Origin: Croceimicrobium sp.
GTDB taxonomy: Bacteria; Bacteroidota; Bacteroidia; Flavobacteriales; Schleiferiaceae
Length of the DNA stretch: 64,000 nucleotides
NCBI GenBank assembly: GCA_965656185.1
Contig: CBFHJH010000001.1
Location: 291,089-355,088, forward strand
Direction: 5' to 3'
In this document: piece by piece, positions 45,623-48,706 of the stretch
Position numbering within the stretch: position 1 is the stretch's first letter
Layout: the number at the start of each line of letters is the position of its first letter
Program-made: the position numbers and the translations under genes
Notes under the pieces: generated by a model
What the model was told of the DNA's origin: nothing
Databases searched by the model: none
The model's input: the letters and a program-made list of their open reading frames with translations, nothing else

Positions 45623-45637
45623 CTATTTTCCAATACA
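45623..45637 (-). repeat. att-core-like copy of the mnmE 3' end (TGT ATT GGA AAA TAG = CIGK*)
   Basis: 12/15 identical to mnmE end TGT ATC GGT AAA TAA; all 3 differences at third codon positions. Confidence 0.75.
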
Positions 45638-45700
45638 CCTCATAGTGGGTTTTTCTGAGGCCTCAACACGCTTGTAGTCTACGATTCAGCGTCTAAAAGT

Positions 45701-45762
45701 GCGCAACAAATTGGCACCAGGTGCCTGTTTTGGCGTTTTGCAGCGCAACAAATAAGCAACAT
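45701..45762 (+). repeat. left-end arm-type-like repeats GCGCAACAA (45701, 45743) with degenerate partners 11 bp downstream
   Basis: Exact 9-mers also found as a tandem pair at 47184 and 47195. Confidence 0.6.
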
Positions 45763-45891
45763 CAAAGAACGATAAATCCAAGATAATTCTTTTTTGTCAA
45801 TGCTTCGTTTTAGTGATCGATTTTGGATCAGGGAGTAGTGCTTAGGTTCTGTGTGGGGATAGCTTTTTTCGACTTGTTTACACAAAGATTT

Positions 45892-46477
45892 TTAAGATCT
45901 GGCAAAATCGAGTAGGGGTTGGTAATCTCCCTGATCAGCTTGTTTCACAGCTTTTAGGTAGGCCGATCTAGTGTCGTTTGCCTTTGAGAGGTTTGCTGCT
46001 CCCCATGAGAAAGGCTTCTGGCCGAAAAGCTTCTCGATAATAATATCTCCCATTAATCTACTGTGTCTCCCATTTCCGTTGGGAAAGCAGTGAATACTAA
46101 CAATTCGATGTTTGAATCGAATAGCGATTTCGTCAGGAGAGTAGGTTTGGTGTTCAAACCAATACAATGCATCATCACATAAAACTTTTAGAGACATGGG
46201 TATTTGAAATTTATCGATGCCAATATTTTTATTGGTTTTTCTGAAATCTCCTGCCCAAGCCCAAACATTACCATACATCCGTTTATGCATGTTGCAAATG
46301 AACTTTTCCGTGAAGACATCTTTGGCCTTGAATTTTTTACCAAAAACCCATTGCAATACCTCTTCGATGTTTTGCTGCTCGAATTCGTCCAATTCTCCTT
46401 TGGTTGTAATGGTTTCAATCAGTAATCCTTCCTTTTATAGGGGTTTGCCCGTCAATGTAATCAAGATCTAATCCCAT
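45892..46477 (-). pseudogene. mobile mystery protein B (Fic domain), frameshifted near 46435
   Basis: ATG 46477 gives MGLDLDYIDGQTPI then a stop at 46415-46417; KEGLLIETITTKGELDEFEQ continues in another frame closed by TAA 46435-46437; Fic motif HCFPNGNGRHSR intact. Confidence 0.8.
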
Positions 46478-46926
46478 AATATCTTTGGCAGTTCACTTTT
46501 AAGTATTGCAGCTCGTTCCTCGACGGCTTTTTGTAGACGTTGCTTCGTATTCTCCTGATCTTCTAGTTTCATCGTGTTCGATGTTCGAGAAACTATTTGG
46601 GTGGCTAGTTCTCGAGCCTTTCGGTCAATTAGGTTTTCGATGCTACCATCCTTAGGAACTAGAGCGTATACCAGCTGCATGTCCAATGCATTTGCGGCTT
46701 CTCTTAAGCTCTTTAGGGTTATTCTCCCTTCCTTTTCACGCTTTTCGATTTCTTGGACACTCTGTTTGGTTATGGATAGTTTATTCGCGAGCTGCTGTAG
46801 AGACATGCCAAGGGAAACCCTTATGGCTTTTAGCCAACCAGTGGGGGGTGGAACTACTTGCTGTGCTGTTTTAAATTCACTTAACTTTCGCTCTAGCTGT
46901 TCGATTTGAAGTTTCTTTTTATTCAT
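46468..46926 (-). CDS. mobile mystery protein A (XRE-family HTH); start likely ATG 46926
   Basis: PPTGWLKAIRVSLGMSLQQLANKLSITKQSVQEIEKREKEGRITL, TMKLEDQ, PKILWD; directly upstream of the Fic gene. Confidence 0.88.
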   Translation of the reverse strand: MNKKKLQIEQLERKLSEFKTAQQVVPPPTGWLKAIRVSLGMSLQQLANKLSITKQSVQEIEKREKEGRITLKSLREAANALDMQLVYALVPKDGSIENLIDRKARELATQIVSRTSNTMKLEDQENTKQRLQKAVEERAAILKSELPKILWD

Positions 46927-46929
46927 GAT

Positions 46930-47046
46930 GTAAGGGTCTGTGCTGACAAAACGCAAACAAAAGTAAGGTTATTACCTGACATAAACAAAATTTAAGTAAG
47001 GATATAAGTTGACAAAATGTTTCAATATATCAGGTTATAGACTGAC
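46930..47046. promoter_or_regulatory. four 18-bp quasi-palindromic operators at exact 33-bp period, overlapping promoter TTTG(46986-46989)-N20-TACTTTTG(46958-46965) on the minus strand
   Basis: gtaagg-gtctgt-gctgac (46930), gtaagg-ttatta-cctgac (46963), gtaagg-atataa-gttgac (46996), atcagg-ttatag-actgac (47029). Confidence 0.8.
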
Positions 47047-47183
47047 GTATTACTAATTAATTAAAAAATAGGAATTGTAAATCAAGCTTGTTAGTGCGAG
47101 AAGCTCGATTGAAAGGAACTAGCAATGCAGGAGGGTACCCTAAGTCCAGAGCCTTTAGGTTTTTGGAATAAAATGTGGCATCT

Positions 47184-47203
47184 GCGCAACAATGGCGCAA
47201 CAA
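47184..47203 (+). repeat. right-end tandem repeat GCGCAACAA-TG-GCGCAACAA
   Basis: Two exact 9-mers with 11-bp period, about 105 bp from the mnmE stop. Confidence 0.65.
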
Positions 47204-47308
47204 AACTTATGAAAACTGGGATAACTAAAGACAGCCAGCGCAATGGTTAAGAAGTCAATTCGCTAAAAGTGAATGGGTTAAGCTTTCTTTGTTTATCGAT
47301 GGTTGGTG

Positions 47309-48706
47309 TTATTTACCGATACAGAATTTACCGAAAATATTGCCTAGAATGTCTTTATCTACGTCCACTTCACCAATAATAGAGCCTAAGTTTTGCAAGG
47401 CCTCACGAATGTCGAAGGATAGTAAATCGCCACTTAAACCAGCATCCAAACCATTTTTTACTTTGTATAGGTTTTCTAGGCTTAGTTCGAGGGCCTGTAA
47501 ATGCCTCACGTTGGTAACGATACTTTGTTGCGCAGCCAAATCTCCCCAATTGTAGAAAGAGCTTATACGTTGGTTTAGTTGATCCAGTCCATCTCCCTCC
47601 TTAGCGTTCATTTTCAAAGCATTAAGTTCAACTAGTTTTGCTGGTACTGCGGCTTTTAGGTCTTTTATTTTATTTAAAATGATAATTAAATTTCGATCGG
47701 AAACCTTGCCTTGGATCAACTCTATTTCGTTCAAAATAGCGGCCCACTCTTCTTGGTTGTTTAGTCTGTTCGCGTCAATAAGATGAAGAACCAGGTCACT
47801 TTGCTCGATCTTCTCGAAGGTCTTTTTAATACCAATGCTTTCAACTAGATCTTCGGTTTCACGGATGCCGGCCGTATCAATAAAGCGGTAGTTTATGCCG
47901 TCGATACTGATCTCGTCTTCGATCGCGTCCCTCGTGGTTCCTGCGATTTCGGTCACGATAGCCTTATCCTCTTTTAGCAAGAGGTTGAGTAGAGTAGACT
48001 TGCCCGCATTAGGGGCTCCAATTATGGCTACAGGTACTCCACTCTTAATGGCATTGCCGGTATCGTAGGAGGCAATTAAACTCTTCAAAACTCCTTCAAT
48101 TTTATCGATGAGGGCTTCTAAGGCACTACGATCGGCAAATTCCACATCTTCTTCGGCAAAGTCTAATTCGAGCTCGATCAAGGAAACAAAATCGATCAAC
48201 TCTTTACGCAGTGCCTTTATTTCATTGGAAATCCCGCCTTTTAAATGTTGTAATGCAATTTGATGGGAAGCCTTGTTTTCAGAAGCGATTAAATCGGCTA
48301 CAGCCTCTGCCTGCGAAAGGTCCATTTTTCCATTGATATATGCTCTTAAGGTATATTCACCGGGGTCTGCCAAACGGGCCCCATTGCGCTGTAAGAGTCT
48401 GAGGATTTGCTCCTGAATGAAAGTCGAACCATGACAGGCAATCTCAATTACGTCTTCCCCAGTGTAGGAGCGAGGCCCCCTAAAGAGGCTGAGCATAACT
48501 TCATCGACTAAATTGCCCTTTTCATCCTCTAGTTTACCTAAAACACAAGAATAGGCCTTGGCTTGCTTTAGATCATGCTTCGAGCTAAATGGCACGAAGA
48601 GGCGCCCCATAAGGGCAAAGCTATCAGCGCCACTAATGCGAATTACAGCGATAGCGCCCATTCCGGCAGCGGTTGAAAGGGCACAGATTGTATCTTCCAT
48701 TCTCAT
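47309..48706 (-). CDS. mnmE: tRNA modification GTPase MnmE (TrmE)
   Basis: SYTGEDVIEI.CHG, GAPNAGKS, IAGTTRD, DTAGIR, C-terminal FCIGK. Confidence 0.97.
   Translation of the reverse strand: MRMEDTICALSTAAGMGAIAVIRISGADSFALMGRLFVPFSSKHDLKQAKAYSCVLGKLEDEKGNLVDEVMLSLFRGPRSYTGEDVIEIACHGSTFIQEQILRLLQRNGARLADPGEYTLRAYINGKMDLSQAEAVADLIASENKASHQIALQHLKGGISNEIKALRKELIDFVSLIELELDFAEEDVEFADRSALEALIDKIEGVLKSLIASYDTGNAIKSGVPVAIIGAPNAGKSTLLNLLLKEDKAIVTEIAGTTRDAIEDEISIDGINYRFIDTAGIRETEDLVESIGIKKTFEKIEQSDLVLHLIDANRLNNQEEWAAILNEIELIQGKVSDRNLIIILNKIKDLKAAVPAKLVELNALKMNAKEGDGLDQLNQRISSFYNWGDLAAQQSIVTNVRHLQALELSLENLYKVKNGLDAGLSGDLLSFDIREALQNLGSIIGEVDVDKDILGNIFGKFCIGK

Follow-up and report, generated by a model that had tools for sequence, protein, structure and literature searches.

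A probable CIME-type islet with a mobile mystery protein pair at the mnmE stop codon of Croceimicrobium sp.

Cis-mobilizable elements (CIMEs), such as those at the 3′ end of fda in Streptococcus thermophilus, are flanked by the attachment sites attL and attR at the 3′ end of a conserved gene, carry no integrase or transfer genes, and stand in tandem with larger elements; their definition and the accretion model have been set out by Guedon et al. (2017, PMC5704250). In Gammaproteobacteria, the 3′ end of trmE/mnmE is the target of SGI1 and of GIVchHai6/MGIVchHai6-type islands (PMC8409611, PMC7449626, PMC5704250). Here we describe an insert at the same gene end in a 64,000-nucleotide stretch of Croceimicrobium sp. 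DNA (the window; GenBank assembly GCA_965656185.1, contig CBFHJH010000001.1, positions 291,089 to 355,088 of the forward strand). The Cys-Ile-Gly-Lys-stop (CIGK-stop) end of mnmE recurs downstream of the gene, and between the two copies lie only a helix-turn-helix (HTH) gene, mmA, and a Fic-domain gene, mmB. We read the segment 47308-45623 as a CIME-type, integrase-less, att-flanked island derivative at the mnmE end that has spread in reduced form, and we give this reading a probability of about 80%. Position numbers are those of the window, and the locus is read on the minus strand unless stated otherwise; the features are listed in Table 1.

The islet probably belongs to an established class of element, the CIMEs, and not to a new one. 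Its cores are the core that borders the integrase-bearing mnmE islands, homology to other loci breaks at both of them, and there are no integrase, excisionase, conjugation or mobilisation genes in between. Unlike the fda CIMEs, it is found in another phylum and is associated with a Bacteroidota-type Arm-DNA-bind_5 integrase family; the full-size islands related to it have genes for replication (primase/DUF3987) and none recognised for conjugation. With SGI1 and GIVchHai6 it shares the target gene end, short direct repeats over the last codons, and a toxin-antitoxin-type module in the cargo. However, SGI1 encodes an integrase and an excisionase of its own, has an oriT and mobilisation proteins, and relies on IncA/C plasmids, whereas the islet, though integrated in the last bases of mnmE, has no int/xis, oriT or mpsAB backbone and no sequence relationship to SGI1, and its hosts are marine Flavobacteriales. 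The first-pass annotation of this DNA had pointed to trmE/thdF as a known island target and to SGI1 as its example. The target gene end is indeed the one used here, but SGI1 is an analogy and not a relative, because no genes are shared and the family integrases are of the Arm-DNA-bind_5 type. These integrases resemble those of CTnDOT (IntDOT), NBU1 and NBU2 in their arm-binding, SAM-like and catalytic domains, and both kinds of system have short direct repeats in the arms and imperfectly matched cores, which IntDOT-type enzymes reportedly tolerate (PMC2817482). In contrast to CTnDOT and the NBU elements, the islet sits at a protein-coding 3′ end and not at a tRNA gene or a loose consensus, and the window copy has no integrase. 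In the literature searched, no paper linked mnmE to islands in Flavobacteriales or Bacteroidota, and mnmE was described as a target only for Gammaproteobacteria.

The case for the islet begins with its two cores. The first pass had proposed a CIGK-stop duplicate with mismatches at wobble positions only, and both 15-mers lie on the minus strand where it had placed them: the end of mnmE, TGTATCGGTAAATAA, and the downstream copy, TGTATTGGAAAATAG, have their three differences at positions 6, 9 and 15, each the third base of a codon. The distance from the mnmE stop through the second core is 1,686 bp. The codon pattern TGY ATH GGN AAR stop occurs just twice on both strands of the window, at these two cores, where a first-order Markov model of the window gives a codon-level expectation of 0.035 per 64 kb. 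For the same strand of the 1,776-nt gap between mnmE and the next gene, which encodes a family 2 glycosyltransferase (GT2), the expectation is about 0.0005.

Other loci show that the element ends at these cores. Our comparison set consists of 80 species-level Flavobacteriales mnmE loci, and further loci come from metagenome contigs with close mmA relatives (loci are numbered with the prefix L). At the right end, the window, L082, L085, L086 and L094 align up to ...ATGAGG-TGTATYGGNAARTAR and then continue into four unrelated flanks; in L081 and L083, similarity breaks inside the core, beside ISL3 transposase fragments. The MRCIGK-stop end is kept in at least eight independent loci. The second CIGK-stop is a real element boundary (attR), since homology to independent loci breaks exactly there, and it is not the copy unrelated to any island boundary that the first pass had allowed for. 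The same annotation had seen here the footprint of an integration that replaces the 3′ end of a gene; the boundary stands, and the island may have supplied the last codons or, alternatively, a decoy copy at attR.

At the left end, high identity to L089, L099 and L103 begins at the attL core or directly after the mnmE stop. Over 887 bp that begin at the mnmE stop and take in mmA, the window and L089 share 90% identity, against 50% between their MnmE proteins, and in L089 the flanks have 54% and 47% GC versus 39% for the insert. L099 and L100 have the same left arm and genes at 91% identity with cores 1.5 kb apart, and the biotin carboxylase of the L099 host is 71% identical to that of the window. 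L094, a 1.8-kb contig, has a true mnmE end, a left arm of a second kind (M-type, as opposed to the W-type arm of the window), mmA-mmB genes that match those of the window at 95-97%, and another core after 1,695 bp. In L088, the 3′ half of mnmE ends at a core and is followed by a 741-aa CHU_C gene and by mmA-mmB; the second core lies 4.45 kb from the first and is identical to it. Altogether, integrase-less islets with 87-97% DNA identity occur in hosts whose MnmE proteins are only 43-50% identical. We had considered whether L081-L088 carry the module away from mnmE and rejected this; because L088 has mnmE 4.4 kb upstream with an identical core, these loci represent the same mnmE site with more cargo.

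The mnmE 3′ end is a major, heavily used integration site in Flavobacteriales. Of the 80 loci, 27 have a tyrosine integrase that begins 150-1,050 bp past the mnmE stop and is related to the L048 enzyme (42-99% identity), which is why we consider this gene end a major attachment site in the order. Members of the family combine Arm-DNA-bind_5, Phage_int_SAM_5 and catalytic domains. Past mnmE, 7 of 79 loci have another C[ILVM]GK-stop on the strand of the gene, against about 0.17 expected. In ten species from different Flavobacteriaceae genera (L007, L022, L029, L034, L035, L037, L046, L048, L068 and L072), the integrase is more than 92% identical and always lies right after mnmE, which implies a very recent spread of the island backbone. 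This shared backbone (about 9400-15400 in each) comprises an HTH_17 gene, the integrase, DUF6617, two HTH_17 genes, a BT4734-like primase and PriCT_2/DUF3987, and it recurs in L112. The window has no such enzyme. No integrase ORF lies between the repeats, as the first pass had said, and across the 64 kb neither tblastn (E ≤ 1) nor a profile hidden Markov model built from the 27 mnmE-associated integrases (E ≤ 10) found a member of the family. Short integrase-less inserts bounded by two cores also occur elsewhere, with a SoFic-like Fic gene in L067 (1.3 kb), ParD/ParE in L030 (1.0 kb), and a single lipoprotein gene in L010 (1.6 kb). In L079, at 9381-9417, two CIGK-stop cores stand 4 nt apart (TGTATCGGGAAATAA-TTAG-TGCATCGGAAAGTAA); this double core may be the scar of an element lost between its att sites.

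The islet has larger, reduced and tandem relatives, and so both alternatives of the first pass, a collapsed remnant and a minimal non-autonomous element, find support. The larger islands that it had suggested looking for are present in L048 (Bizionia) and L112 (Winogradskyella sediminis; 3946-19413), where mnmE is followed by an HTH gene, integrase, primase and DUF3987, then by mmA-mmB (76-78% amino acid identity) and more defence cargo. In L112, the genes past mmA-mmB encode an MmeI-type restriction-modification (RM) enzyme, ApeA, Abi2 and a prokaryotic Argonaute (pAgo). The reduced form also occurs in L089, and reduced copies bounded by two cores are represented by L094 (1.7 kb), L099/L100 (1.5 kb) and L088 (4.45 kb, with identical cores). 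Tandem arrangements are found in L086, where an M-type left arm directly follows the islet attR core, and in L099 (JGI Ga0207828_100007). There the islet follows a defence island (1-7620) with a patatin, two SMODS cyclases of cyclic oligonucleotide-based antiphage signaling systems (CBASS), E2-CBASS and a type I RM HsdR, and then a 57-nt mnmE 3′ fragment that forms the left core of the islet. Some mnmE islands thus seem to duplicate or displace a piece of the gene much longer than 15 bp. The joints left of the mmA module vary, with W-type arms, M-type arms, a hipA-like gene (L103), the 741-aa gene (L088) or other ORFs (L091-93), and this heterogeneity fits repeated deletion and cargo turnover.

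The pair also survives at an unrelated site. In Mariniflexile L110 (9422-11110) and L111 (GCA_002848895.1 / GCA_002838085.1), the HTH/Fic pair and a 59-aa ORF make up an integrase-less insert of about 1.6 kb after tRNA-Met, bounded by direct repeats of about 60 bp that comprise the tRNA-Met 3′ end and terminator; the pair is the only cargo. That mmA-mmB is the last survivor at two unrelated att sites is as expected of an addiction or defence module.

What is this cargo? The first-pass annotation had described it as an HTH/Fic pair and nothing else. The pair is confirmed: mmA scores 147.8 bits against TIGR02612 (cut-off 122.6) and the adjacent mmB 232 bits against TIGR02613 (cut-off 124.4), both above the curated cut-offs, and Pfam finds HTH_3 in mmA and Fic in mmB (6.4e-10). 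mmB starts with an ATG at 46477 and shares 10 nt with the end of mmA. The Fic gene, however, is not intact. Between 46437 and 46436 it has lost 11 nt, which puts it out of frame from codon 15, with a stop at about 46414, and the tblastn match of mmB is split (46477-46436 and 46434-45895). A 98%-identical metagenome contig and five aligned relatives have the missing 11 nt; the deletion recurs in L090, but this contig matches the window at 100% and could be the same assembly. A 166-aa ORF is left (46392-45892), and it has the Fic active-site motif HCFPNGNGRHSR. mmB also matches the PADLOC candidate PDC-S04 at 7e-23. The arrangement is like that of Fic/Doc type II toxin-antitoxin and defence modules (FicTA, SoFic, PDC-S04), in which an overlapping HTH regulator precedes a Fic protein with the HxFxxGNGRxxR motif and which usually reside in mobile or defence islands. 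Unlike in FicTA, the Fic gene of the window is frameshifted, and the toxin-antitoxin role of mmA-mmB is putative. Among the papers found, mobile mystery proteins receive passing mentions in genome papers, with no functional test of TIGR02612/TIGR02613. Proteins 93-98% identical to the window mmA are frequent in marine metagenomes; viral contigs in IMG/VR contained no mmA relative, and there was no match among phages and a single weak one among plasmids (Bergeyella, 71% over 11% of the query).

Directly 5′ of mmA stand four GTCA-N8-CCTKA boxes of 17 nt at an exact 33-bp spacing, starting at 47046, 47013, 46980 and 46947. They are conserved in all relatives, including L048, L089 and L081-86, even where protein identity falls to 76%. 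The third box adjoins a promoter-like element, TAnnTTTG, which is the −7 promoter motif of Bacteroidota. The boxes are probably mmA operators. The gene module common to L091-95 and L103 starts at the first box (47046/47044). In L103 itself, a 273-aa fusion of an HTH to a HipA_C kinase, toxin-like, lies between the W-type left arm and mmA (6940-7761, minus strand).

The arms of the islet carry a second set of repeats. All six copies of TTGTTGCGC in the window lie within 45535-47533 (0.55 expected per window), in agreement with the cluster of GCGCAACAA/TTGTTGCGC noticed in the first pass. TTGTTGC(GC) repeats are found in both arms and mostly come in twos, with 11 bp between them. The left arm has a single such pair (47203-47184). 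The right arm has, at 45762-45701, two intact TTGTTGCGC copies and degenerate half-sites, and its last letters before the core are ATGAGG. This right arm is 85-97% conserved in L081-88 and L094, and one of its half-sites is mutated in the window relative to L081-88. Loci of the L048 clade that carry an integrase have TTGTTGC at +66 and +128 past the mnmE stop, and 52 integrase-free loci have none from +1 to +400. Repeats in both arms, enriched in integrase-bearing loci, are what a heterobivalent att site would have, and we treat them as candidate binding sites only. They follow the arms and not mmA, and we therefore read them as putative arm-type sites for the N-terminal domain of the integrase.

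Alternatively, the TTGTTGCGC repeats could be operators for mmA or for a host regulator. mmA is DNA-binding, and an extra inverted copy precedes the GT2 start in chromosomal DNA, yet we consider this explanation unlikely. The repeats are present in the left arm of L088, where the 741-aa gene parts them from mmA; in the L048 clade, those at +66 and +128 adjoin the integrase, 6 kb from mmA or in loci without it; and the surroundings of mmA-mmB have none of them in L048 and almost none in L110. In addition, mmA has the conserved four-box array of its own. One TTGTTGCGC copy lies inside mnmE (47525-47533), and we rejected it as a part of the system: of 78 other mnmE genes, 7 have GCAACAA at the same −223 position, whether or not an island is present, and the match is thus a coding coincidence. 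The inverted copy mentioned above is part of an inverted TTTTTGTTGCGCT (45531-45543, plus strand; TTGTTGCGC at 45535-45543), 5 nt before GT2 and outside attR in supposed chromosomal DNA. It matches a 13-mer of the M-type left arm in L088 and L094 and is possibly a relic of an earlier occupant.

How might the islet have formed and moved? In the reading that we favour, full-size relatives would integrate by a heterobivalent tyrosine integrase, with a catalytic domain that recombines the core of about 15 bp and an Arm-DNA-binding domain that binds the TTGTTGC repeats. The core would stay constant across hosts because MnmE needs its C-terminal CxGK. The islet would have arisen through internal deletion of a larger island, with the HTH/Fic pair surviving as an addiction or defence module. 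The reduced form would then have moved between genomes with an integrase that a related element supplied, in trans or, once accreted in tandem at a core, in cis, and the window copy would now be decaying further. That the spread came after the reduction follows from the joint between the W-type arm and mmA, which is 90% identical in hosts as different as those of the window and L089. The tandem layouts in L099 and L086 are consistent with cis-mobilisation and point to accretion, as described for CIMEs, as the probable route.

Several points weigh against this reading. Islands with both an integrase and mmA-mmB exist (L048, L112), as an origin by deletion predicts, but at 76-78% amino acid identity and with different arms. 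Their mmA-mmB genes lie mid-island, right after the replication genes and not at the attR end, so the picture of the islet as the right-hand end of a bigger island fails for both. We found no integrase-bearing parent with W-type arms; a metagenome scan with one 21-mer of the left arm returned only the L099 contig and three chance matches. The 80 related genomes and public metagenome contigs yielded neither an empty mnmE-GT2 junction nor an excised circle or attP junction, in a search where the exact GT2 protein is not on record, the exact MnmE is found only on L090, and the organism occurs in one public run, as contigs only. The arm-site role of TTGTTGCGC is suggested by position alone. Some reduced copies are without right-arm repeats (L099, and partly L103), so not all copies can be recombination-competent. 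Finally, the crossover may lie anywhere within the 15-bp core: the window and L099 have the same attR core with different flanks, whereas the attR core of the closer relative L094 differs and equals the attL core of the window. Either the element or mnmE itself may have supplied the last codons.

It is tempting to see in these islets a dedicated minimal cassette, that is, a small core-flanked toxin or defence unit swapped by the integrases of resident islands, in the manner of integrons or tycheposons. Several short two-core inserts hold a single toxin or defence unit (the window, L094, L099, L067 and L030), cores stand in tandem in L099 and L086 and 4 nt apart in L079, and the same islet is found in very different hosts. 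However, the heterogeneous left joints point to repeated deletions more than to a cassette of defined make-up, no array has more than two or three cores, the right-arm repeats are deleted in some copies, and no circular form was seen. The pair as sole survivor at a tRNA-Met att site with different repeats is a better fit to the last gene standing. We hold the cassette explanation to be rather improbable. The same low odds apply to its broader form, a cassette economy at the mnmE stop of marine Flavobacteriales in which recombinase-less, core-bounded toxin and defence units would be stacked, swapped and passed between distant hosts by resident-island integrases. If true, it would work much as the cassettes of integrons or the cargo of tycheposons do, but its anchor would be a protein-coding core fixed by the essential C-terminus of MnmE.

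A collapse in place, with immobility afterwards, would account for the frameshifted Fic gene, for the lack of a helper integrase within 64 kb, and for an islet GC content of 40% versus 43% in the window; the similar islets elsewhere would then reflect common descent or independent collapse. This is very improbable. The same joint of left arm and mmA is about 90% identical at the DNA level in L089 and L099, although MnmE of L089 is 50% identical in a host of 54% GC and the biotin carboxylase of L099 is 71% identical. Islet identity of this order beside such diverged neighbours excludes vertical descent, and independent deletions would not yield the same joint. Chance similarity of a CIGK-stop in AT-rich intergenic DNA can be set aside, for although the match of 12 of 15 is not significant as plain DNA (four window matches at three or fewer mismatches versus 2.5 expected), the codon-level expectation in the gap and the retained MRCIGK-stop end with its exact homology break oppose it.

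The ends of a small mobile element can thus be defined from sequence alone, and the mnmE stop emerges as a main landing site of islands in Flavobacteriales, with an integrase there in about a third of the sampled species and often with defence cargo (CBASS, RM, pAgo, Abi, SoFic). The recurrent survival of mmA/mmB at two att sites suggests for the pair a testable role as an addiction or defence module that stabilises islands, and the 90%-identical integrase-less copies in very different hosts offer a natural case for the spread of non-autonomous islands. For genome annotation, the Fic gene should be recorded as pseudogenised and the 1.7-kb insert as foreign. A single islet of this kind is ordinary. 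It is the family picture (hotspot frequency, a coding-constrained core, islets with only toxin or defence genes, and spread between distant hosts) that merits a short study.

Table 1. Features of the mnmE locus and islet, in window coordinates
Feature	Position	Strand	Evidence
mnmE, target gene (tRNA U34 carboxymethylaminomethyl-synthesis GTPase), 465 aa, C-terminus ...GKFCIGK-stop	47309..48706	-	TIGR00450 E 5.9e-119; NF003661 above cut-off
attL core TGTATCGGTAAATAA, last four mnmE codons + stop	47309..47323	-	codon uniqueness; homology start
Left att arm, W-type, non-coding	47047..47308	-	blastn ~91% to L089, L099, L100; partly L103
TTGTTGCGC pair, 11 bp apart, candidate integrase arm-type sites of left arm	47203-47195 + 47192-47184	-	position
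Four GTCA-N8-CCTKA boxes, candidate operators	46931..47046	-	conserved in relatives
mmA, mobile mystery protein A, intact 152-aa HTH_3/XRE regulator	46468..46926	-	TIGR02612; Pfam HTH_3
mmB, mobile mystery protein B, Fic-domain gene, frameshifted	45892..46477	-	TIGR02613; tblastn split
Right att arm, non-coding; TTGTTGCGC at 45751-45743 and 45709-45701 + degenerate TTGTTGC half-sites	45638..45891	-	
attR core TGTATTGGAAAATAG, non-coding copy reading MR-CIGK-stop	45623..45637	-	homology end
Chromosomal flank, attR to GT2 start	45533..45622	-	similar only to identical contig L090 among compared loci
GT2-family glycosyltransferase, first gene past islet	44354..45532	-	weak EpsU/GT2 matches

On the minus strand, the gene order is a PAS sensor kinase (52558-48719), mnmE, a spacer of 382 bp, the HTH gene, the Fic gene, a spacer of 254 bp, the second CIGK-stop, and, 90 bp further on, GT2. 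In none of the 80 related genomes does GT2 follow mnmE. The nearest genomes by MnmE are a Croceimicrobium metagenome-assembled genome (MAG) at 71% identity and a Schleiferiaceae MAG at 64%; all others are Flavobacteriaceae at 51-58%. The GC content shows no anomaly across the window, and a contrast is visible only in L089. An Rfam scan found no RNA family in the region, and scans of the region for sigma-70 promoters and terminators were uninformative. A left-arm hairpin at about 47110-47080 is weak (z −1.8), and hairpins in the left arm and near attR were no better than in shuffled sequences. The left arm might hold a trace of the HTH gene with which the island begins (MPHFIPKT), but this idea was dropped, as only six residues support it. 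In L082, a fragment resembling a tRNA 3′ half (T-arm and acceptor stem) lies upstream of the islet, beside IS3 fragments, at about 5440-5490 on the minus strand; ARAGORN does not predict a tRNA at this place.

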